From contig JAUICV010000001.1 of the NCBI GenBank assembly GCA_030427725.1, forward strand, positions 605,298 to 669,297: 64,000 nt of DNA, read 5' to 3'. Shown in pieces: positions 5,166-60,126 of this stretch. The stretch comes from Chlamydiia bacterium (lineage in GTDB: Bacteria > Chlamydiota > Chlamydiia > Chlamydiales > GCA-2402025). The translations under genes and the position numbers were made by a program. Within the stretch, counting starts at the first letter, position 1, and every line of letters begins with the position of its first letter. The notes below the pieces were generated by a model. The model ran no database searches and was not told where the DNA came from. It was given only the letters and a program-made list of their open reading frames with translations.

Positions 5166-7099
5166 TAATTATGCTTTTCTAAAATAATGTTAATCAAACT
5201 TCCAGCTAAAATAGACTCTTTTTGTCTTTCTGTCAGATCTAAAACAGCCTTAAAAGATGTATTTTTAGTCTTATTAATAACTTCTACACTGTTTCCAGAT
5301 TGGACAGCTTTTTTTACATCTTTAATCTCTAAAACATCGTTTTGATCTATTCCATCGTAATCAGCTTTATTTTCAAAAGTAAGGGGTAAGATTCCAAAGT
5401 TAATAAGATTTTTTCTGTGGATTCTAGCGTAACTTTTAGCAATGACAGCTTTCACACCTAAATACCTAGGAGCTATTGCGGCATGCTCTCTAGAAGACCC
5501 TTGACCGTAATTTTCTCCTCCCACAATCATTGAACCGGATGATTGATGCTCCATGGCTCTGTCATAATAAGTTTCATCAACTTGGTAATAGGTAAACTTA
5601 CTAATTTCTGGGATATTACTTCTAAATGGCAGTACCTTTGTTCCTGCTGGCAAAATCTCATCTGTAGAAACATTGTCACCAGTTTTTAAAAGAGCTGGTC
5701 CTTCTATGTGGTCTGATAAGGATTCAAATTTTGGCAGAGGTTTAATGTTTGGCCCCATAATAAGCTCGTGCTTATGACCATCTTTCACAGGAGGTGTTAA
5801 ACACTCCACAATCTCTATCTGATCAGGCTCTTTAAATTTAGGATATTCCATCTCTAAAGTTCTTGGATCTGTGATAACTCCAGTTAAAGCAGCAGCTGCT
5901 GCTGTCTCAGGACTACACAGGTAGACTTGGTCTTCTTTTGTTCCTGATCTTCCTGGAAAATTTCTAGGAACTGTTCGTAAGCTGATTTTGTTAGTTGCTG
6001 GAGCCTGCCCCATTCCTATACATCCATTACATCCAGCTTGGTGGACTCTGGCTCCAGCTCTTACTAAGTCATTTAGGAAGCCAAAGTTTGCTAAGTTTTC
6101 TAGGTTTTGTCTTGAACTTGGGTTGATGTCAAAAGAAACCTGATCTTGAGTTCTTCGGCCCTTAACCATCATTGCAGGGATAGCAAAATCTCTATATGCA
6201 GGGTTAGCAGAAGATCCGATCATTGCTTGAAAGACAGGTTTCCCAGCAACTTTTGAAACCTCAACCACATTACCTGGGCTACTTGGACAAGCAATAAGTG
6301 GAACAAGTTTTGACAGATCAATCTCTTCATGCTCATCATAAGTCGCATCTTCATCAGCGACAAGCTCTACCCAATCTTTTTCTCTACCATGAACTTTTAA
6401 AAAGCGTTTCACTTCTTCATCTGATGGAAAAACGCTTGTTGTCGCTCCAAGCTCTGCTCCCATATTAGCTATAACATGTCTATCCATAGCGCTTAAGTTT
6501 TTTAATCCAGGCCCGTAATACTCGATGACCTTACCAACACCACCTGACACATCATGACGACGTAAAAGCTCTAAAATTACATCTTTTGCGCTGATCCAAT
6601 CAGGAAGCTCTCCCGTCAACTTAACTCCCCAGACCTTAGGCATGTTAACATAAAATGGCTCTCCAGCTATTGCTAAAGCTACTTCCAATCCTCCCGTTCC
6701 GATCGCAAGCATTCCTAAACTTCCTGCTGCTGGGGTATGGCTGTCAGAGCCTACCATAGTTTTTCCAGAAACACCTAAATTTTCCATGTGAACCGGATGC
6801 GACACTCCATTTCCTGGTTTACTAAACCATAATCCAAATTTTCTGCAGGCGCTCCACAAAAATAGGTGGTCATCAGGGTTTTTGAAGTCATTTTGAATAA
6901 TGTTGTGATCAACATATTGACAAGAGACTTCAGTTTTGGGTTCTTTTAATCCCATAGCATCTAACTCTAGCATGACCATTGTTCCAGTAGCATCTTGAGT
7001 GAGCGTCTGATCAATTTTTATAGCGATCTCTTCACCCGGGTTCATTTCCCCAGATACTAAGTGAGATTTGATTAGTTTTTGAGTAACATTGAGTCCCAT
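5165..7099 (-). CDS. aconitate hydratase, short (~645 aa) aconitase-family enzyme
   Basis: Fe-S ligand motifs GSDSHT and CNGCIGMGQAP. Swivel-domain motif GENYGQGSSREHAA. The length fits the short 'Aquifex-type' aconitases rather than AcnA/AcnB. Confidence 0.8.
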   Translation of the reverse strand: MGLNVTQKLIKSHLVSGEMNPGEEIAIKIDQTLTQDATGTMVMLELDAMGLKEPKTEVSCQYVDHNIIQNDFKNPDDHLFLWSACRKFGLWFSKPGNGVSHPVHMENLGVSGKTMVGSDSHTPAAGSLGMLAIGTGGLEVALAIAGEPFYVNMPKVWGVKLTGELPDWISAKDVILELLRRHDVSGGVGKVIEYYGPGLKNLSAMDRHVIANMGAELGATTSVFPSDEEVKRFLKVHGREKDWVELVADEDATYDEHEEIDLSKLVPLIACPSSPGNVVEVSKVAGKPVFQAMIGSSANPAYRDFAIPAMMVKGRRTQDQVSFDINPSSRQNLENLANFGFLNDLVRAGARVHQAGCNGCIGMGQAPATNKISLRTVPRNFPGRSGTKEDQVYLCSPETAAAAALTGVITDPRTLEMEYPKFKEPDQIEIVECLTPPVKDGHKHELIMGPNIKPLPKFESLSDHIEGPALLKTGDNVSTDEILPAGTKVLPFRSNIPEISKFTYYQVDETYYDRAMEHQSSGSMIVGGENYGQGSSREHAAIAPRYLGVKAVIAKSYARIHRKNLINFGILPLTFENKADYDGIDQNDVLEIKDVKKAVQSGNSVEVINKTKNTSFKAVLDLTERQKESILAGSLINIILEKHN

Positions 7100-7282: not shown

Positions 7283-8296
7283 TTGAAAATGTTAGACGAA
7301 AGAATTTTGAAAGGTCATATTGATCCAAGCTTAAATTTATTTTCCAGAATTCATAAAAGTTTATGCCTATCATCGAAAAACGCCCACGTTTTTATAAAAC
7401 GAGACGATGAACTAAGCGCTATGATCTCAGGATCAAAATATAGAAAATACGCGGGGTTACTGCCTTTTTTGAAAAATCAAAAAATTAAAAATTGTATTCT
7501 AATGGGATCAAGCTTTTCTAATCATCTAGTTGGATTTCCTCAACTCCTTATCGAAAACAACATCACTCCCTACACTGTAACACTTTCAAGAACTTATCAA
7601 AAAGAAGTTGGAAACTTGGTGTATCTTAAAAGCATCATCCCCTCTTCTAACCGTTTGGAACTTCCCTCAGATCTTTGGTCAAATCGAGTGGAAATATCAA
7701 AAAAATATTTTTCTGATTTAGTCGATTCGTTTATTTTAGATGAGGGAGGAGAAAGCCCTTTTTCTATATTAGGAGCTATGTCAATTGCGTTAGACTTGCA
7801 AAAACAGGGTCCCTTTGATCACATTTTTGTTGATGTAGGCTCTGGTTTATCTGCAATTGGACTATTGATTGGATTAAATTTTGTATCCTATACACCTTTA
7901 GTTCATGTTGTATCGATGGCTATTAGCAATGAGCAGTTCGAAAACAAGTATAATGATTACTTAAAGAAGCTTGAAGGTCTTCTCTCATTTCCTTTGAGGA
8001 AATATAAGTACACATTTGAGCATGCAGTTCCCAAATCTTTTGGATCAACCTCCCCTACCCTTTTTAAGAAAATCATCAATGTAGTAAGGTCTGAAGGAGT
8101 GTTTTTTGATCCGCTATATGGGATTAAACTATATGGATCGGCTGAAAAGTTTATCGAAACATCGAATGGAAAAATTTTGATCATTCACTCAGGAGGAGTA
8201 CAATCTCTATCCGGATTTCAAGAGCAGTTAAAAAAAGCTATAACTCAAGAGGAGAAGACCTTTTTTTCCAATAGTAAGGACCATAGTCATAAGTAA
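7283..8296 (+). CDS. PLP-dependent ACC deaminase / D-cysteine desulfhydrase family protein
   Basis: IKRDDELS..SGSKYRKY (PLP-lysine motif like KRDD..GGNKxRK) and C-terminal IIHSGG. TTG start at 7283, ATG at 7289. Confidence 0.6.
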   Translation: MKMLDERILKGHIDPSLNLFSRIHKSLCLSSKNAHVFIKRDDELSAMISGSKYRKYAGLLPFLKNQKIKNCILMGSSFSNHLVGFPQLLIENNITPYTVTLSRTYQKEVGNLVYLKSIIPSSNRLELPSDLWSNRVEISKKYFSDLVDSFILDEGGESPFSILGAMSIALDLQKQGPFDHIFVDVGSGLSAIGLLIGLNFVSYTPLVHVVSMAISNEQFENKYNDYLKKLEGLLSFPLRKYKYTFEHAVPKSFGSTSPTLFKKIINVVRSEGVFFDPLYGIKLYGSAEKFIETSNGKILIIHSGGVQSLSGFQEQLKKAITQEEKTFFSNSKDHSHK

Positions 8297-9092
8297 GTTG
8301 TGATCCTTTAGGAATGAATTGTGTTGCATACAAGATAATATGACAAATTCCTTTTGAAATCATCCAAGTAGAGTTTAGGTTAGGACTGTCATTATGGTTA
8401 ATAAAACGCGTAAAATTCCCCTGGTATTGAGCATCAATGACAAATGGAGTCTCTAAAGGCCCGCAGACATACCCAAAAATATAATCATTCGAAAGATCTT
8501 TTTTAGACTGTCTTCTTTTTACAACTCCAGTATAGCTTCCTACATAACTGTATTGAGCGATATCCTCTTTTGCAAATAATCCATATCCCACAATTGGATC
8601 TATCCATTTGACAAAGACCTTTGGATGCTTATGGGCAATGTGTTCTTTTTCATGCATACAAACAGTCCAATGATTTTTCCACTTGTTGGAAATATCTTTC
8701 AGGACTTTATGGCATTTTCTAGTCGTCCACTTCAAAAACCTAGGGTTTTTAAAAGTCAAATGGTCACTATATTGAAATTTAAAATGTTTGAGTATTTGAT
8801 CTTTATCAAAAAGTTCAAAGCGCTTTTCTTTAGTTAGATAGATTTCTAGACCAGAAAAGCTCTCCTTTTGTTTCACTTCATGCCTTCCGAGCAAAATCGC
8901 TAGCTCAACTGGCGTTAACCCGTAATGATTGACCTTTTTATAATCACCTTCACACGCCTTAAAATGGTCCATATGATTATATAGGGCACTTAAATGTGCG
9001 AGTGTATTCCCATCCTTGTCTCGATAAGAAGCGTCATTATATTTCTTTATAAGCCTTTCAAAGGATTTTGATGATTTGATCGACGAAATCAT
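8238..9092 (-). CDS. ankyrin-repeat + SET-domain protein lysine methyltransferase (eukaryote-like)
   Basis: ANK repeats (DKDGNTLAHLSALYNH, NHYGLTPVELAILLGRHEV). SET motifs GYGLFA, RFINHNDSPNLN, GSQLTYDYG. Confidence 0.8.
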   Translation of the reverse strand: MISSIKSSKSFERLIKKYNDASYRDKDGNTLAHLSALYNHMDHFKACEGDYKKVNHYGLTPVELAILLGRHEVKQKESFSGLEIYLTKEKRFELFDKDQILKHFKFQYSDHLTFKNPRFLKWTTRKCHKVLKDISNKWKNHWTVCMHEKEHIAHKHPKVFVKWIDPIVGYGLFAKEDIAQYSYVGSYTGVVKRRQSKKDLSNDYIFGYVCGPLETPFVIDAQYQGNFTRFINHNDSPNLNSTWMISKGICHIILYATQFIPKGSQLTYDYGPYYWKKRSSPLEL

Positions 9093-40010: not shown

Positions 40011-41486
40011 CTAGAAACCAAAATCTTGAGCCAGTCTAATGATAGTTTCAATAAATTCCCCTGGACGTTTCTGCGAGGAGAGTTGATATAACACCTGATG
40101 CATAGTTCCGTCATCATCAATATAATAATCACAAAATGCAGCAGCTGATGCATTTTGTTTTGCAGCTATAACAACGCTTCTTACCTTGTCATAATCAGCT
40201 TCTTTAAATTTTGTGTTTCTTTTAGAGACATAACTAGCAATAATATCACTTACCCCTGTTGGATCTGTTCTAACTAGAGAAAATTGATATTTTCTAGATC
40301 CTATTTTGCTTGCAAGAAGGGATAAAAAACTTGAGTTTAGAGTAAGGGTTGTGTTGCTATTACCTTTTTGCTCTGAAACACTAACTCCTGTGTATGGCTT
40401 CCCTAAAGAATTAGTTGAATAGGTGACTACTTTTTCATCAAATACAGCAAATCTTTGACTATATCCTCCAACATTTGCAGCTAATACAGTACTTCCATAA
40501 GAATTTGCACTAAGTTCTGTAATAGCATCAATTTTACCACTGGCAAGAACTGTTATTTCAGTAGGAGCCTCACTTAAAATATCAGAGACTTGAGCCAGCT
40601 CTGATCCAGTTAAGTAAGCGATATAGCCCTGTCTTCGTTCATTAGACGTCAGTATAGTTGATCCTTGAGACACAACATCAGCTAACCGACTAACTTGTTT
40701 AGATGTTGCATAAGCCCCACTTTTTGATGTTTGATAAGCTGCATAGACTTTATTAGATTTTTCATAGACAACACAAGCTGTGTTTGCTGTATTTGCAAAA
40801 GCTCCAACAAGACTTGCAGATTTCACAACACTTTTCTTATAGACCTGCGTTCCGTTTTTTATTCCAATAGCGCTAATTTCTACTTGATTGCTTTTATTTT
40901 TGTGCTCGACAACAACCTCTGCTTGCCCTGAGCTTTTTTTAACTACAAAAACCTTACTAACACCTGTTAGTTCTTTAATATTTTCGATAAGCGTTTCTTT
41001 CAGCTCTTTAGACTCAACAGAAACGGATTTCACCACAAGTTTGTTATTAGGAGAGCGAAATGCAAAAAGGGCCGTTGTATCATCAATCCAATCTACGCTT
41101 ACATTTTCTTTTGAAGCATCGGTTGTCCAAACCGTATCACCAAGTTCAATCTGTCTATAGGATGGCAGAACAGAAGGGTTAGAAATGGTAGCTTTTACTG
41201 TTGCTTTAGAGCCACCTTGGTATCTAGCTATTGCTGTTACAAATTTTCCAGTAGATGCATTAAGAGAAGAACTGACTATATCATAAACGTTCTTGTCAAA
41301 CTCAAGGTTTTTCCCAGGTGTAATCATTTGGTTATCCAATACTTGCCCTACCGGTACAGCACTCTGAAGACCTCTTTCGAATGCTTTAAAAAAAGCCTCA
41401 TAAGCCTCATCCTGTTCACAACCACAGAATAAAATCACTCCTGTCACTAAAAATAAATGTGGGAACATTTTGTAGATACGCTTCAT
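40011..41486 (-). CDS. exported ~490-aa hypothetical lipoprotein (paralog 2 of a tandem pair)
   Basis: ATG 41486 with GGAG 8 nt upstream (the ORF track starts at TTG 41510). Signal peptide ending LFCG|C. Collinear similarity to 38275-39786. Confidence 0.7.
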   Translation of the reverse strand: MKRIYKMFPHLFLVTGVILFCGCEQDEAYEAFFKAFERGLQSAVPVGQVLDNQMITPGKNLEFDKNVYDIVSSSLNASTGKFVTAIARYQGGSKATVKATISNPSVLPSYRQIELGDTVWTTDASKENVSVDWIDDTTALFAFRSPNNKLVVKSVSVESKELKETLIENIKELTGVSKVFVVKKSSGQAEVVVEHKNKSNQVEISAIGIKNGTQVYKKSVVKSASLVGAFANTANTACVVYEKSNKVYAAYQTSKSGAYATSKQVSRLADVVSQGSTILTSNERRQGYIAYLTGSELAQVSDILSEAPTEITVLASGKIDAITELSANSYGSTVLAANVGGYSQRFAVFDEKVVTYSTNSLGKPYTGVSVSEQKGNSNTTLTLNSSFLSLLASKIGSRKYQFSLVRTDPTGVSDIIASYVSKRNTKFKEADYDKVRSVVIAAKQNASAAAFCDYYIDDDGTMHQVLYQLSSQKRPGEFIETIIRLAQDFGF

Positions 41487-41528
41487 AAAAACAACTCCTA
41501 TATTTTTCAAAATTTAATTTTTTTTTTT

Positions 41529-53828: not shown

Positions 53829-55229
53829 ATGGTTAACACTATTTCACTGTACAGGTACCCTCAAAATACCTCGTTAGACAAGCCTGAATCAAGCATCTCT
53901 AAAAGTGAGTATTTTAAGGCTGTGAAAACAGCTCAAAAAGTCGATCACCAGATTTATACCAAGGAAAGACTAAATAGATTAGGCCTTCCAGTAACGTCCA
54001 ATGCCACAGGAATCACAAATTTAGTAACAGCTCCTATTACATTAGCGACTATTACCTATAAAGCTATTAAAACATCGAAATCTAACCAACTCCCTTTTGA
54101 TTACAAAGAAGCTTTCGTAAAAAGCGCTTCAACTACCGCCTCTTTTGTTCACGCTTTTGGCTTATTGTCTCAATACTTGTATGTATTTGCTGTAAAATTC
54201 GCATCTCCTCTTATTGCCACTTTTGCTGGAGCCATTTTCTACCCTATTGAAATTGTTTATAATGTATGGATGCTACAATCTACACACACAATCAATAAAA
54301 CAATAAACGAAGACTTGATCAAAGCCTTGGCTCCTCTAAAAGATAGTAGCATTTACCAAAATAAAGCTAAGTTTTCAAAAGCTTTAAAAACGTTAGATAA
54401 ACAATTAAAAGCCAATTCAAGCGACTTAAAACAACTTCTTGGAAAAGAAGTTCTAGAAGAAGCTAAAGCTGCAGTAGCTCACGCAAATTTTCGAATGAAC
54501 AAAACCTTCAATATAAAAGAAGTACACACAAACTTGAATAAAAAGTTGTTAAAAACATACACAACAACCATACAAAAATCGATTCAAGCCCTTCAGAAAT
54601 CTAGGCTAGATCTAAAGTCAAAAGACATTAAAAAACTTGATGAGTATGCTAGGAAGGCATACAAATCTCTACCTGCAGAAAAAGCTCTTTATCTTACATT
54701 AGAAAAAATTCAAAAAGCTCACGAAGATAAAAAAAACAAGCTGTCTAGACTACTTAGGCCATGGGTTGTTGAAAAATTCACAAGAGAAAGTGCCACTATC
54801 ATCAAAAATTTACAAAGTGAAGACCCAAAACTTGTACAAAAAGGAATAGAACAAGGACTAGATCTTTTAAACGACATAAATTTTGTAGCCTCCGGGAAAC
54901 AAACTGTTCACTTTAACGCTTGTGTCATGAACTTTATTTTGCTGATAATGCTAGCGGCAACCACAGTAGCTTTGCCTTTTGCGATTCCTGTTCTTATCAG
55001 TGTAACATTTTTTATATGGGGCGTGCTTGACCTTTCTATAAACGTTGGTTTACTCGATAGTCCAGATAAGAAATTCCATGTTGAAAACCTAATTCCGAAC
55101 TGGGTTAAAGATAGCTATAATTACTTAAAGACATTAAGTATCTTTAAAAGCAACACTCCTAAAAGAAAAGATGTGATTAAAGATCCAAGATCTACTACTA
55201 CTCAAAGAGTCTATACAAAAATAGCCTAG
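53829..55229 (+). CDS. hypothetical membrane protein with two bilobed hydrophobic domains (Inc-like) and a coiled-coil middle
   Basis: FVHAFGLLSQYLYVFAVKFASPLIATFAGAIFYPIEIVYNVW and VMNFILLIMLAATTVALPFAIPVLISVTFFIWGVL, separated by a K/E/L-rich helical region. Confidence 0.55.
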   Translation: MVNTISLYRYPQNTSLDKPESSISKSEYFKAVKTAQKVDHQIYTKERLNRLGLPVTSNATGITNLVTAPITLATITYKAIKTSKSNQLPFDYKEAFVKSASTTASFVHAFGLLSQYLYVFAVKFASPLIATFAGAIFYPIEIVYNVWMLQSTHTINKTINEDLIKALAPLKDSSIYQNKAKFSKALKTLDKQLKANSSDLKQLLGKEVLEEAKAAVAHANFRMNKTFNIKEVHTNLNKKLLKTYTTTIQKSIQALQKSRLDLKSKDIKKLDEYARKAYKSLPAEKALYLTLEKIQKAHEDKKNKLSRLLRPWVVEKFTRESATIIKNLQSEDPKLVQKGIEQGLDLLNDINFVASGKQTVHFNACVMNFILLIMLAATTVALPFAIPVLISVTFFIWGVLDLSINVGLLDSPDKKFHVENLIPNWVKDSYNYLKTLSIFKSNTPKRKDVIKDPRSTTTQRVYTKIA

Positions 55230-56050: not shown

Positions 56051-56590
56051 TTATTTTTTTTTGATAGTTCCAGTTTTTATTGTAACGTAATTTTCATCAA
56101 TCTCCTCAACAAAGGTTAGAAAACCATCATCTTTCCCGATAGCCCCTACTAAATACGGTAAATATTTGAAATATTTACCGTGTTTAGACAAACTCAACTC
56201 TGTCACCTCATCTGTGTCAATATCTTGACCATTGTAGCAAAATTCTCGATACTCCATGACATGTTTTTTGCGACCAACTTCTAGTGCTACAATCTCCCAA
56301 TAGCTTTTGTTGTTTGAGCTTGCTATTATCACCCCTAACGATGAAGTATCATCATCACCTGACCTTATCACAGGCACACTAGCTGAGCATAACCCTAAAC
56401 TGTGTTTTTTTACTAAACCCTCACCAAGATTTGCTAACATTAGCTTTTGTTGAGATGCAGTGTTATAAACAATTGCAACTTCACCATCTGGTGCAGCTAT
56501 AAACTCTAATAATTCTTTGTCCTCAGACTCAACTGTCTCTGAAACTAGAGTTCCTTTTAGATGTGAAAAGAGCTCTAATTCACCATCCAT
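56051..56590 (-). CDS. hypothetical soluble protein
   Basis: 179-aa ORF. No family recognised. Confidence 0.45.
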   Translation of the reverse strand: MDGELELFSHLKGTLVSETVESEDKELLEFIAAPDGEVAIVYNTASQQKLMLANLGEGLVKKHSLGLCSASVPVIRSGDDDTSSLGVIIASSNNKSYWEIVALEVGRKKHVMEYREFCYNGQDIDTDEVTELSLSKHGKYFKYLPYLVGAIGKDDGFLTFVEEIDENYVTIKTGTIKKK

Positions 56591-56696
56591 TTGCGTCTCT
56601 CCTGTCGTTATTTATCAAAATAGTTTTATCTCTTTAAAAAATTACAAGCAACCTCTAAAGTTAAGTTTGTTTTTTATCATTTCCTACAAACAGCCT

Positions 56697-57257
56697 ATGA
56701 ATGAGCCACACCCCTTAATCAAAAATAGATGGTCACCAAGAGCCATGAGTGGAGAAATCCTTTCTGAAAAGGAATTTATGCCGCTTTTTGAAGCGGCTTC
56801 TTTAGCTCCGTCTAGCTCAAATAGTCAGCCATGGAGGTTTTTGATCACAAAAGCTAAAACTGAGCGTTTTGAGCAGTTTTTATCACTATTATTTGAAGGT
56901 AATCGTATATGGGCGAAAAATGCATCATTGCTAGTTCTTGTTATCTCTAGGCTACATTTTGAAAAAAATGATAAATTTTCGAAAACGCATAGCTTTGACA
57001 CAGGAGCCGCATGGGAAAATTTAGCTCTTCAAGGGTGCTTTCAAAATCTTGTTATTCATGGAATGGCTGGTTTTGATTACGTAAAAGCTAAAGAGATTTT
57101 TTCCATTCCAGATATTTATCAAATAGAAATGGCGATAGCCATTGGAAAACCTGGAGACAAAAACTCTCTGCCTGAAGAACTTAAGAAAGTTGAGTACCCA
57201 AAAGAAAGAAAACCCTTAGAAGAACTTATTTGTTTTGATTCATTTGCATTTGAGTAA
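56697..57257 (+). CDS. nitroreductase-family oxidoreductase
   Basis: From ATG 56697: NRWSPRAM, APSSSNSQPWRF, GMAGFD. The upstream part of the ORF-track ORF overlaps the divergent gene and is not conserved-looking. Confidence 0.7.
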   Translation: MNEPHPLIKNRWSPRAMSGEILSEKEFMPLFEAASLAPSSSNSQPWRFLITKAKTERFEQFLSLLFEGNRIWAKNASLLVLVISRLHFEKNDKFSKTHSFDTGAAWENLALQGCFQNLVIHGMAGFDYVKAKEIFSIPDIYQIEMAIAIGKPGDKNSLPEELKKVEYPKERKPLEELICFDSFAFE

Positions 57258-57289
57258 AAAAAATCGAGCAAGTCATAAACTTGCTCGAT
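57256..57289 (-). terminator. rho-independent terminator of the histone-like gene
   Basis: ATCGAGCAAGT-CATAA-ACTTGCTCGAT (11-bp stem). On the minus strand it is followed by T8. Confidence 0.65.
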
Positions 57290-57349
57290 ATACATGGAGT
57301 GGTAGTGAAGTCTTAAAGACTTCAAAACTAACGTATTAGAGAGTAAAAC

Positions 57350-57871
57350 TTACTTTTTAGAAGTTTTTCTTTTAACAGTTCTTCTAGCTTTAGGCTTAGA
57401 AGCTGTTGTTTTTCTCTTAGTTGTTTTTCTACGTGTAGTTTTTTTAGCAGCTGGTTTTCTCTTAGCTGTAGTCTTTCTTTTTGCAGTTGTTTTTTTAGCA
57501 GCTGGTTTTCTTTTAGCTGTAGTCTTTCTTTTTGCAGTTGTTTTTTTCTTAGCAGCTGGTTTTCTTTTAGCTGTAGTCTTTTTTGCAGTTGTTTTTTTCT
57601 TAGCAGCTGGCTTTCTCTTAGCTGTAGTCTTTCTTTTTGTAGTTGTTTTTTTCTTTGCAGCTGGTTTTCTTTTAGCTGTAGTCTTTCTTTTTGTAGTTGT
57701 TTTTTTCTTTGCAGCTGGTTTTCTTTTAGCTGTAGTCTTTTTAGCAGCTGGTTTTCTCTTAGCTGTAGTCTTTCTTGCAGTTGTTTTCTTACGAACAACT
57801 CTTTTTTTAGCTGGAGCAGCCTTCTTTGCAGCAGGCTTTCTCTTAGCTGTAGTTTTTCTTTTTGTTGCCAT
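57350..57871 (-). CDS. hctB: lysine/arginine-rich histone H1-like nucleoid protein, chlamydial Hc2-like
   Basis: 173 aa made almost only of K,R,T,A,P. About 9 units of KRKPAAKK(K)TT(A/T)(KRKTTA). Strong aaggag SD 7 nt upstream of the ATG. Confidence 0.7.
   Translation of the reverse strand: MATKRKTTAKRKPAAKKAAPAKKRVVRKKTTARKTTAKRKPAAKKTTAKRKPAAKKKTTTKRKTTAKRKPAAKKKTTTKRKTTAKRKPAAKKKTTAKKTTAKRKPAAKKKTTAKRKTTAKRKPAAKKTTAKRKTTAKRKPAAKKTTRRKTTKRKTTASKPKARRTVKRKTSKK
57400..57845 (-). repeat. imperfect in-frame tandem repeats (about 51-54 nt units) inside the histone-like gene
   Basis: The core gcagctggttttct(c/t)ttagctgtagtc recurs about every 51-55 nt on the + strand. Boundaries are approximate. 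Confidence 0.7.
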
Positions 57872-58263
57872 TTTGTTTTCTCCTTGATGGTATTACCAAA
57901 TAGGATTTTTATTAACGAAGATAACGCTAATAAAAAATACAATATCTCCTACAATTTTTAATATACAAATAATTCAATATTTTATAAAACAAAAAAGTAT
58001 AAACTTTATTTTACTTAATTAATTTAATTTTGTAATATGCTGCTCAAACCATCTTCTAGGCTTAAATTTACTAATTAATAAAATTTAATAATTTTTTTTT
58101 GAATTTCTACATTTTTGAAAAATAAATCTTAAAAAAACAAAGAAAAGAACTTCTTATTTGTGCAAATTCGAATGTTTGTAAAAGCATTCACTTTTTACAG
58201 TTATTTAAATTTCAAACCGTCACAATTACTCTATTATCCACCTAACTGTTAGTTAGATACGAT

Positions 58264-60126
58264 TTAATCTGTGAGTTGTTCCCATTTTTGGTATAGTTCA
58301 TTTAGCTTGTTTTCAAGCTCTTCACGTTTGTTTAATAACTTTTGCTGTTCTGTTTGTGTTGTTGTTTCGTAAAAGCCTGGTTTAGAAAGGTTTGAATTTA
58401 TTTTTTCTAGCTCTAATTCACTAGAATTGATCGCTTTTTCACATTCTATCAGCTGATTTTTGTTAGATGTCTTTTTTTGTTTAGAGTTTTGTTTTTTTGA
58501 GTTCGATGAACTTATATTTTTAATAGTTTCATTTTCTGTTTCTGCATCTAAATACGTTTGATATCCTCCTAGATGAGAAACAATTTTTTCATGTCTAATT
58601 TCGATTACTCTACTTGCTAAATTCTCAATAAAAAACCGATTGTGCGACACAAACAAAACAGCTCCAGGAAACTCGATCAAAGCTTTTAGAAGCATTTCAG
58701 AGCTCTCCATGTCTAAGTGGTTTGTTGGCTCGTCAAAAATCAAAACATTTACTTCCCTTAACATGATCGTGCAAAGATAAAGTCTTGCTTTTTCTCCCCC
58801 ACTTAATACTTTGATTTTTTTGTTAAAATCATCCTGATGAAACAACATTTTCCCTAAAGCATCGTAAATTTTTTGATCTGGAACATCTACAGTAGAATTT
58901 TTCAAAAACTCAAACAGCCTTTGCTCAAAATCTAGCTTTTTTTCAAATAGCTGTGGAAAGTAGCCAACCTGCACTCGATCTGCAAACTCAAAAGATCCTA
59001 AGTCTGCTTGCTTGTCACCTGTGATAATCTCTAAAATAGTAGATTTACCTATACCGTTAGCTCCAATAATTGCTACCTTTTCATCTCTTTGAACTTCAAA
59101 TGAAACATGATTCAACACCTGGTGGTTTCCATAAGATTTTGATAGGTTTTTAACCTTAAGGAAAATAGCCGGAAGTCTCCCCCCTACTTGAAAGAAAAAA
59201 TTGGGATAACATCTTGAAGAGGGTAAAAGCTCATGAGACAACTTTTCCATTTCTAAGCGATTTATGATTTTTTCTTTTGATTTAGCTTGTTTGGCTTTCG
59301 TAGCTTTTGCCCCAAACTTCTCCACAAACTGACTCAGTTGTTTTTGTTTTTTTGAGATATTTGCAAGAGCTGCTCCCTTTTGCAAAACTTCCTCTTTCTT
59401 CAGTTCGACAAAATCTTCGTAATTCCCAGGATAAATTTTCAACATTCCAAAATCTAAATCTATAATAGATAAGCTTACATCATTTAAAAACTGCCTATCA
59501 TGAGAGCAAACAACAACGGATCCCTTAAACTCTGTTAAATAGCTAGCAAACCATTTAATTGTCTCTATATCTAAATAGTTTGTTGGCTCATCTAAAAGTA
59601 ACAAATCTGGCTGATCAAAAAGCAGTTTAGCAAGCATTACCCTCACTTTGTATCCACCAGAAAAACTAGCTAGAGTCTCTTCTTGTTTTTCTAAATTTAT
59701 CCCTAGACCTGAAAGTAGCGTTTCAATCTCACTTTCTGCTTCATATCCACCCAAATTTTGTATTTTTTCTTCTATCAAACTAAGTGTGTGAATGTCATCG
59801 TTTGAAAGTTCTTTTTCTAATAGCTTATCTTTTTGTAAAATGGCCTCATAAAGGTCTTTTTTTCCGGATAAGACTACCTCTTTTATAGGGAGATTTTCAT
59901 AAAGATAGTAATCTTGGCTTAATGCACCAATTTTTGAATATTTAGGGAAGAAAATATCTCCGCTACTCGGAGCTAATTCTTGGCTTAATATTTTTAAAAA
60001 CGTCGATTTACCACTTCCATTCGCCCCAACTAAACCATAGACATGTTTGGGCTTAAGCTGAAGCGTAACTTTTTCAAATAAAACACGATCAGCAATCTTC
60101 ATCGAAAGATTTTGAATATTAAACAC
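58264..60126 (-). CDS. ABC-F family ATPase (Uup-like, C-terminal coiled coil)
   Basis: Two cassettes (GANGSGKST/LSGGYKVR/LLLDEPTN and GANGIGKST/LSGGEKAR/LIFDEPTN), no TM, K/E-rich C-terminal coiled coil. GTG start. Confidence 0.85.
   Translation of the reverse strand: MFNIQNLSMKIADRVLFEKVTLQLKPKHVYGLVGANGSGKSTFLKILSQELAPSSGDIFFPKYSKIGALSQDYYLYENLPIKEVVLSGKKDLYEAILQKDKLLEKELSNDDIHTLSLIEEKIQNLGGYEAESEIETLLSGLGINLEKQEETLASFSGGYKVRVMLAKLLFDQPDLLLLDEPTNYLDIETIKWFASYLTEFKGSVVVCSHDRQFLNDVSLSIIDLDFGMLKIYPGNYEDFVELKKEEVLQKGAALANISKKQKQLSQFVEKFGAKATKAKQAKSKEKIINRLEMEKLSHELLPSSRCYPNFFFQVGGRLPAIFLKVKNLSKSYGNHQVLNHVSFEVQRDEKVAIIGANGIGKSTILEIITGDKQADLGSFEFADRVQVGYFPQLFEKKLDFEQRLFEFLKNSTVDVPDQKIYDALGKMLFHQDDFNKKIKVLSGGEKARLYLCTIMLREVNVLIFDEPTNHLDMESSEMLLKALIEFPGAVLFVSHNRFFIENLASRVIEIRHEKIVSHLGGYQTYLDAETENETIKNISSSNSKKQNSKQKKTSNKNQLIECEKAINSSELELEKINSNLSKPGFYETTTQTEQQKLLNKREELENKLNELYQKWEQLTD

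Follow-up and report, generated by a model that had tools for sequence, protein, structure and literature searches.

The window studied here, a 64,000-nucleotide (nt) stretch of the genome of a Chlamydiia bacterium (assembly GCA_030427725.1, contig JAUICV010000001.1, positions 605,298 to 669,297 of the forward strand), contains at 57350-57871 on the minus strand a genuine monocistronic gene, read in a frame rich in lysine, arginine, threonine and alanine (the K/R/T/A frame). The gene is a member of a positionally conserved family, recognised by its genomic slot, by motifs at the protein termini, by a motif upstream of the gene and by AAGGAG before the ATG. Structure prediction presents its 173-amino-acid (aa) product as an intrinsically disordered polycation with no predicted fold. 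We consider it probable that this 19-kDa polycation binds nucleic acid and compacts the nucleoid in the manner of the chlamydial proteins Hc1 and Hc2, as one member of a family that keeps its slot while its repeats turn over. Judged by its sequence, the protein is of an ordinary kind, a histone H1-like polycation, whose slot-conserved family is separate from that of HctB (Hc2).

A disordered polycation built of repeats

A preliminary description of the window had drawn attention to a 173-aa K/R/T/A/P product, which both the open reading frame (ORF) and its composition confirm; the coordinates given there, 57328-57942, are those of an ORF in an alternative frame, and the K/R/T/A gene itself is shorter.

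57350-57871, minus strand: coding sequence of the 173-aa polycationic repeat protein (MATKRKTTAKRKPAAKK...KRKTSKK), recognised by its ORF and composition, by an ATG and a ribosome-binding site (RBS) conserved in 20 syntenic loci, and by shared terminal motifs
57439-57740, minus strand: core tandem array of a 54-nt (18-aa) unit, 5.7 copies, 93% matches, score 506 (Tandem Repeats Finder)
57328-57942, minus strand: alternative-frame ORF, 204 aa, TTG start, rich in L/Q/K/E; no gene, as judged by codon shuffles, a start that is not conserved and the lack of a family match

Lysine makes up 35.8% of the product, threonine 22.5%, alanine 19.7%, arginine 12.7%, proline 5.8% and valine 1.7%. Lysine and arginine together account for 49% of the residues, aspartate and glutamate for none, and the protein has an isoelectric point of about 12 and a mass of 19.3 kDa. 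Basic triplets alternate with three small neutral residues (T/A/P) along its length, and the autocorrelation of charge is highest at a lag of six residues (0.65, with 0.45 at a lag of five). The peptide KRKPAAKK occurs eight times and delimits units of 11, 17, 18, 18, 18, 17 and 17 aa, with longer, degenerate units at the beginning and the end; the shortest unit spans only 33 nt. Degenerate copies carry the array to about 57431-57844, and the protein ends about 25 residues past the last repeat. The initial count of about nine units of 51-54 nt was roughly right, the array consisting of 5-6 clean units and of degenerate ones that include the 33-nt unit. AlphaFold returned a predicted template modelling score of 0.12 and zero secondary structure for the 173-aa protein, and a PDB search with it found no relatives; both results are what one expects of a disordered protein.

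A conserved genomic slot

On the evidence of its protein matches, the host is an environmental chlamydia outside the Chlamydiaceae. The window, with a G+C content of about 35%, encodes an MnmA protein that is 70% identical to one relative and about 60% identical to proteins of Simkaniaceae, Parachlamydiales, Anoxychlamydiales and Rhabdochlamydiaceae. The matches of the neighbouring ABC-F protein agree with this, the best named ones across both proteins belonging to Simkaniaceae, Parachlamydiales, Anoxychlamydiales and Neptunochlamydia, so that the chlamydial origin proposed from the bare sequence is borne out. Reclusachlamydia socialis, which is reported to be without hctA and hctB, was rejected as the source because ispG/GcpE is encoded on the neighbouring contig L081, while the DXP pathway is missing from that species. 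Neighbouring window proteins are singletons in the public collection, where they stem from a single NCBI contig (862,559 bp) and a single Logan run. Two genes anchor the slot.

58264-60126, minus strand: ABC-F ATPase gene, upstream synteny anchor
56697-57257, plus strand: nitroreductase gene, convergent downstream anchor, likely start ATG at 56697 (Pfam, synteny)

The conserved order is RarA, amino-acid permease, glutaredoxin, ABC-F, the K/R-rich ORF on the same strand as ABC-F, the convergent nitroreductase and PAP2. This order was found in the window, in the loci L082-L086 and L089, in one Joint Genome Institute (JGI) contig and in 12 metagenome loci, and more than 20 related loci have an ORF rich in K/R/T/A in this slot. 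The first four of these loci (L082-L085) are Logan contigs whose ABC-F proteins are 50-61% identical to that of the window. L086 is the complete genome of Candidatus Neptunichlamydia sp. REUL1, with a 147-aa protein at 6473-6916, and L089 is a Chlamydiia metagenome-assembled genome, with a protein of 114 aa at 6092-6436; the JGI contig carries a 112-aa ORF in the slot. The order was not found beside the ABC-F genes of Parachlamydia sp. AcF125 and one other chlamydial genome. The slot orthologues share a start of the form M(A/P)(T/A)KR(K/R).. and an end of the form ..KP(K/V)xRR...

The family could also be recovered through its upstream motif, GTATATT-N5-TTGTAGGA, which, searched for exactly in the metagenome collection, matched 59 times. 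In sixteen of these matches AAGGAG, an ATG and a K/R-rich ORF come 75-87 nt downstream, and those loci recovered with flanks have the same ABC-F, nitroreductase and PAP2 neighbours; the remaining 43 look like chance or unrelated occurrences. A pattern spanning the RBS and the ATG gave 0 matches in the metagenomes.

Concerning the neighbouring genes, the nitroreductase ORF as listed (56517-57257, plus strand) has a TTG start and overlaps a 179-aa ORF at 56051-56590 on the minus strand; its orthologues (..LILNRWSPRAMSG..) suggest that translation really begins with the ATG at 56697. In the sister clade, a further small basic ORF (43-68 aa, ..KAKRLRRFSNVRRH..) lies right after ABC-F (L086 5990-6121, L089 5528-5734).

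The reading frame

The locus is indeed open in two frames, as had been remarked at the outset, and this proves to be a trivial property, expected from composition, when the codons of the gene are shuffled. T stands at codon position 2 in just 4 of the 173 codons (there is almost no F, L, I, M or V), so that no stop can start there and the +1 frame is open. In the shuffles the +1 frame was stop-free in 29% of cases (mean 0.7 stops), and of the three antisense frames two were open every time (100%). The actual gene has four frames out of six that are open or almost so, two opposite-strand frames having 1-2 stops, and the orthologues in L086 and L089 show the same multi-frame openness.

The second open frame is a by-product of composition and not a gene, while the K/R-rich frame is opened by an ATG preceded by AAGGAG in every related locus. 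L082 and L084 retain the N-terminus MATKRKT through synonymous changes, and repeat units differ in length by whole codons throughout. Units often differ by AAA/AAG or GCT/GCA exchanges, which are silent in the K/R frame and not in the alternative frame. The alternative frame had been called heptad-like, a description that does not hold: its period is 18 aa, like that of the repeat, and it contains no true heptad. That its 204-aa, coiled-coil-like product is real, or a second product of dual coding, is scarcely credible, even though the frame is open across 615 nt and a public gene caller picked it in L085: its start moves among orthologues (a TTG in the window, ATGs at differing positions in other loci), the AGGAG upstream of its TTG is only 3 nt away, the synonymous changes of the K/R frame alter it, and searches of its product against Pfam and NCBIfam models gave no family match.

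Repeat turnover among relatives

The repeat units are lineage-specific, being 54 nt long in the window and 15 nt (KKTTA, 4.7 copies) plus 75 nt in Neptunichlamydia, and the arrays have therefore expanded independently. Variation in repeat number, which had been put forward as something to check, was found among close relatives of the sister clade: proteins of 97, 111 and 127 aa (L148, L094 and L097), of 147 and 132 aa (L086 and L108) and of 142 and 123 aa (L121 and L146) are encoded between flanks that are 95-99% identical.

The slot also holds repeat-less versions of 38-45 aa (MAKKRASKKTARK...AAARK) at L109 667-789, L112 438-575 (minus strand) and L130 2149-2265 (minus strand). They keep the upstream motif and the RBS, and may correspond to the gene in an unexpanded form. 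In L103, an ORF that begins 79 nt past the motif has a K/R-rich N-terminus (MPAKRRKKAASS...) running in frame into an unrelated 373-aa sequence; this fusion probably arose through chimeric assembly at the repeat.

Signals around the gene

The gene is enclosed by its own signals, most of them in the 392-bp intergenic region (21% G+C) that reaches up to the ABC-F gene.

57880-57885, minus strand: Shine-Dalgarno (SD) sequence AAGGAG, 8 nt before the ATG, read from the sequence; invariant in all orthologous loci
57888-57898, minus strand: palindrome TGGTAATACCA beside a UCCU stretch, a possible anti-SD element or operator (alignments, folds)
57906-57936, minus strand: predicted 12-bp hairpin in the 5' untranslated region (single-sequence fold)
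57947-57966, minus strand: upstream motif GTATATT-AAAAA-TTGTAGGA, flanking blocks invariant in six loci
57960-57965, minus strand: -10-like TATATT within the upstream motif (promoter scan)
57983-57988, minus strand: -35-like TTTATA, 17 nt upstream of the -10-like element (promoter scan)
57263-57289, minus strand: intrinsic terminator with a 12-bp stem, a 3-nt loop and then T8, between the gene and the convergent nitroreductase gene (fold of the 3' region, z = -5.0)

The strong SD sequence, the clean terminator and the AT-rich upstream region of about 390 bp that the preliminary description had listed are all confirmed by these features. The upstream motif occurs once in the window and sits about 80-95 nt 5' of the ATG; across six loci (the window, L082, L084-L086 and L089) its GTATATT and TTGTAGGA blocks are invariant and its middle five bases vary. 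By its sequence, it may combine a promoter -10 element with an operator or transcript start.

Within the 5' leader, the folds predict that the UCCU near TGGTAATACCA pairs with the AGGA of the RBS; at the site of the palindrome the sister clade has GGAATTCC and UUCC. Other lineages have a leader hairpin of different sequence at the matching relative position. Single-sequence folds of the leaders had z scores between -1 and -4, which are merely suggestive, and RNAalifold found no consensus structure in an automatic alignment of the 5' leaders because the hairpins were not aligned in register. Taken as modelled, the leader hairpin and the stretch that pairs with the RBS suggest translational control. 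The leader hairpin shows apparent compensatory changes with respect to the sister clade (TTTAAAGC/GCTTTAAA vs TTTAAGGC/GCCTTAAA). An Rfam scan of the entire window found nothing.

Why searches miss the family

Sequence searches did not return the family. A word-indexed search of 5.8 billion proteins gave only compositional matches of at most 60 bits, to basic tails on unrelated proteins. No orthologue emerged when HMMER was run exhaustively on 1.84 billion representatives either, where the matches were again only compositional and of at most 60 bits; the known positional orthologues were returned by neither. BLASTP could not align the window protein with that of L086, and a scan with the ABC-F neighbour, over a contig collection that does not include the window's genome, yielded just matches of at most 39% identity in other phyla. 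Exact look-ups of the 173-aa, 204-aa and 156-aa products in a collection of 15 billion proteins were all negative, a result that is uninformative because the 147-aa L086 orthologue, which has been called as a gene, is absent from it too.

The public record of the locus is damaged at the level of both contigs and gene calls. All five short-read (Logan) contigs at the locus end within the repeat gene.

L081 1-125: contig end inside the gene
L082 8252-8352: contig end inside the gene
L083 4323-4423: contig end inside the gene
L084 6361-6529: contig end inside the gene
L085 8206-8331: contig end inside the gene

In L085 (8206-8331) the public gene call takes the alternative frame, in L089 (6076-6462, minus strand) an antisense ORF replaces the K/R-rich frame, and in L086 (6379-6831, minus strand) an antisense ORF is called beside it; exact look-ups of the products of these calls found none in the protein collection. 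The broken contigs, like the absence of the exact 173-aa protein from that collection, could be taken to mean that the locus is a non-coding minisatellite or an assembly artefact rather than a gene. We give this next to no chance, since the ORF, start codon, RBS and terminator persist in lineages whose ABC-F proteins share only 43-61% identity, one complete 1.97-Mb genome among them, and the absence from the collection extends to the L086 orthologue.

Comparison with Hc2 and other polycations

Hc2 of Chlamydia, a protein of 165-237 aa, binds DNA and RNA and condenses the nucleoid; it is built of lysine-rich pentamers (two basic residues and three of A, V, T or P) arranged in 36-aa elements of variable number, with conserved, non-repetitive flanks of about 24 N-terminal and about 69 C-terminal residues (PMC2848022). 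The window protein is likewise chlamydial, small (173 vs 165-237 aa) and monocistronic; it shares the repeats of K/R plus A/T/P, the evenly spaced charge and the absence of acidic residues, and it is built from tandem DNA repeats of a family in which, in the sister clade, their number varies between close strains. It is rich in T (22%) and poor in V, whereas Hc2 is rich in A and V; its charge has a period of six (three basic, three neutral) in place of pentamers with two basic residues; its units are 18 and not 36 aa long; and the conserved 69-residue stretch that Klint et al. describe after the repeats has no counterpart in it. The L086 orthologue has a charge period of 5.

HC2 is the sole curated family that the 173-aa protein touches. 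The matches to its hidden Markov models span only positions 11-146 of 194 and 21-135 of 201, and are thus confined to the repeat part of the profiles, leaving the C-terminal part unmatched. Three of the 16 family members touch the Pfam model PF07382, with a best E-value of 4.7e-4. The resemblance to Hc2 claimed at the outset therefore stands for composition and repeat architecture, and membership of the HctB/Hc2 family does not: the scores lie below the cut-offs given next, the C-terminal match is missing, the charge period is 6 instead of 5 and the sigma-28 promoter is absent.

Several results weigh against likening the protein to Hc2 in function. PF07382 scores it at 16.7 bits against a cut-off of 40, and NF038052 (NCBIfam) at 22.6 bits against a cut-off of 135. 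In C. trachomatis hctB is transcribed late from a sigma-28 promoter (PMC12282069), which was not found here: the best match to TAAAGTTT-N10-12-GCCGATAA was 12 of 16 positions, a value reached by 11% of shuffles, and it is not conserved in the orthologues. Composition alone does not fix function, because unrelated proteins carry tails of the same composition, and a low-complexity resemblance to HC2 can be convergent. The repeat count of the window, finally, could be affected by assembly, because short-read contigs break inside the gene.

We regard it as unlikely that the protein is a true HctB/Hc2 orthologue that has diverged beyond recognition through repeat turnover. The host belongs to the same phylum as the Chlamydiaceae, HC2 is the only family with any match, and undetectable similarity says little when BLASTP cannot align even positional orthologues; yet the matches that exist fall short of both cut-offs and cover the repeat part of the profiles only, the T-rich repeat with its six-residue charge period stands against A/V-rich pentamers (PMC2848022), and there is no sigma-28 promoter. 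The genes around hctB in C. trachomatis probably also differ from the neighbours of the window gene. Klint et al. list Protochlamydia pc1836 as Hc2 (PMC2848022, supplement 3) and treat it as such. Orthology studies, however, limit HctB to the Chlamydiaceae (PMC1403754, PMC10448858, bioRxiv 10.1101/2024.11.28.625222) and place it only in Chlamydia and Chlamydiifrater (PMC10448858, PMC1403754); outside that family Hc1 alone is regarded as conserved (bioRxiv 10.1101/2024.11.28.625222; PMC10448858).

The protein pc1836 is reported to be without repeat elements, and BpH1 of Bordetella is expressed in growth and dispensable; with the H1-like proteins of Burkholderia, Ralstonia and Herminiimonas (NF038053), these two belong to the same class of lysine-rich, low-complexity, length-variable DNA-binding proteins (PMC2848022). 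Hc1 (HctA, PF07432) and the C-terminal domain of eukaryotic H1 likewise have a disordered, K/A/T/P-rich DNA-condensing segment, but Hc1 and H1 have a folded or conserved N-terminal domain and the window protein has none; an Hc1-family protein (P0032) is among the weak matches by virtue of its basic tail. NF038053 scores the window protein at 9.8 bits against a cut-off of 80. Near-identical peptides occur in lysine-rich tails (of DksA, SWIB and YtxH-like proteins, and of the AlgP/PhaF KPAA type), among them KRKTTAKRKPAKK in P0201 and RRKPAAKKTT in P0001-P0006. Such tails are appended to folded domains in unrelated organisms, whereas in the window the repeat is the whole protein. The protein has the features of the histone H1-like functional class, being small, dominated by K and R together with A, T and P, free of acidic residues and devoid of a folded domain.

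Proposed function and alternatives

A role in coating and compacting nucleic acid is proposed because the protein is a disordered polycation with regular basic triplets, its gene has a strong RBS, and its host is a chlamydia. From these features, and by analogy, we infer nucleic-acid binding, nucleoid compaction and late developmental regulation. The 173-aa protein would bind the phosphate backbone of DNA, and probably RNA too, without sequence specificity; charge would thereby be neutralised and the nucleoid compacted, as it is by Hc1 and Hc2 at the conversion from the replicative to the infectious stage. The internal repeats would expand, contract and turn over in each lineage through replication slippage or through unequal recombination between near-identical units, and the structured leader may mask the RBS.

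The basic clusters of the protein (KRK, KKK) resemble, by sequence, classical nuclear localisation signals, and would act as nuclear or nucleolar signals if the protein were a secreted effector that binds host chromatin or RNA. Chlamydiae are known to send NUE and the SWIB protein Wcw_0377 to the host nucleus (PMC6426960), and a SET-domain protein is encoded within the window. We nevertheless hold an effector to be improbable, a little more so than HctB orthology: the N-terminus is itself highly basic, the strong RBS and the architecture of an abundant product fit a structural protein, and the gene is conserved in a housekeeping neighbourhood.

Credence is lower again, if only slightly, for a protein that mainly binds RNA, ribosomes or another polyanion and serves as a translational silencer or storage factor. 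Strong RNA binding and repression of translation are known from Hc2 (PMC2848022), tails of this kind occur on DksA and other non-nucleoid proteins, and the gene adjoins that of an ABC-F translation factor. Being neighbours does not put the two genes in one operon, however; a separate promoter region of about 390 bp and a separate terminator serve the repeat gene, and the sequence draws no distinction between RNA and DNA as the ligand.

Nucleoid compaction in the manner of Hc1 and Hc2 can be carried one step further, to a proposal that we hold only tentatively. The slot family may be an unrecognised "second histone" in at least one environmental clade (Neptunichlamydia/Simkaniaceae-related), the restriction of HctB may in part be an artefact of detection, and the upstream motif and leader may form a developmental control element. 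If so, the restriction would be partly artefactual because orthologues cannot be aligned, genes are called in the wrong frame or on the wrong strand, and assemblies break within the gene.

Other features of the window

The window also encodes the SET-domain protein mentioned above, about 49 kb from the repeat gene.

8238-9092, minus strand: SET-domain protein, 284 aa, 72.6 bits (Pfam)

Its N-terminus resembles two ankyrin repeats, weakly (16.6 bits against a cut-off of 27.3). A regular-expression search of the window for ankyrin and SET motifs had found nothing; the SET protein was located later by Pfam. If it acts as the preliminary description supposed for its ANK-SET protein, the repeat protein would be a candidate substrate of it. 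Published results on the methylation of Hc1 and Hc2 by chlamydial SET proteins are contradictory (PMC6426960). Large ORFs of 466-503 aa without any family match lie at 53829-55229 (plus strand), 38275-39786 (minus strand) and 40011-41510 (minus strand); the 466-aa ORF has, as read from its sequence, paired hydrophobic stretches like those of chlamydial inclusion-membrane proteins.

Implications

Genes of this kind are lost at three steps, in assembly, in gene calling and in the inference of orthology, and tables of presence and absence for low-complexity proteins therefore need a synteny check before they are trusted. The repeat array is a ready-made locus for strain typing, as hctB is in C. 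trachomatis. The interest of the family is moderate and chiefly for chlamydia biologists and annotators; its slot and upstream region are unexpectedly well conserved. Nucleoid condensation is a hallmark that defines the chlamydial infectious stage, and if the proposed reading is true, this Hc2-like syntenic family would be a candidate second compaction factor in environmental chlamydiae and would provide a simple marker of the late developmental programme in uncultured lineages.

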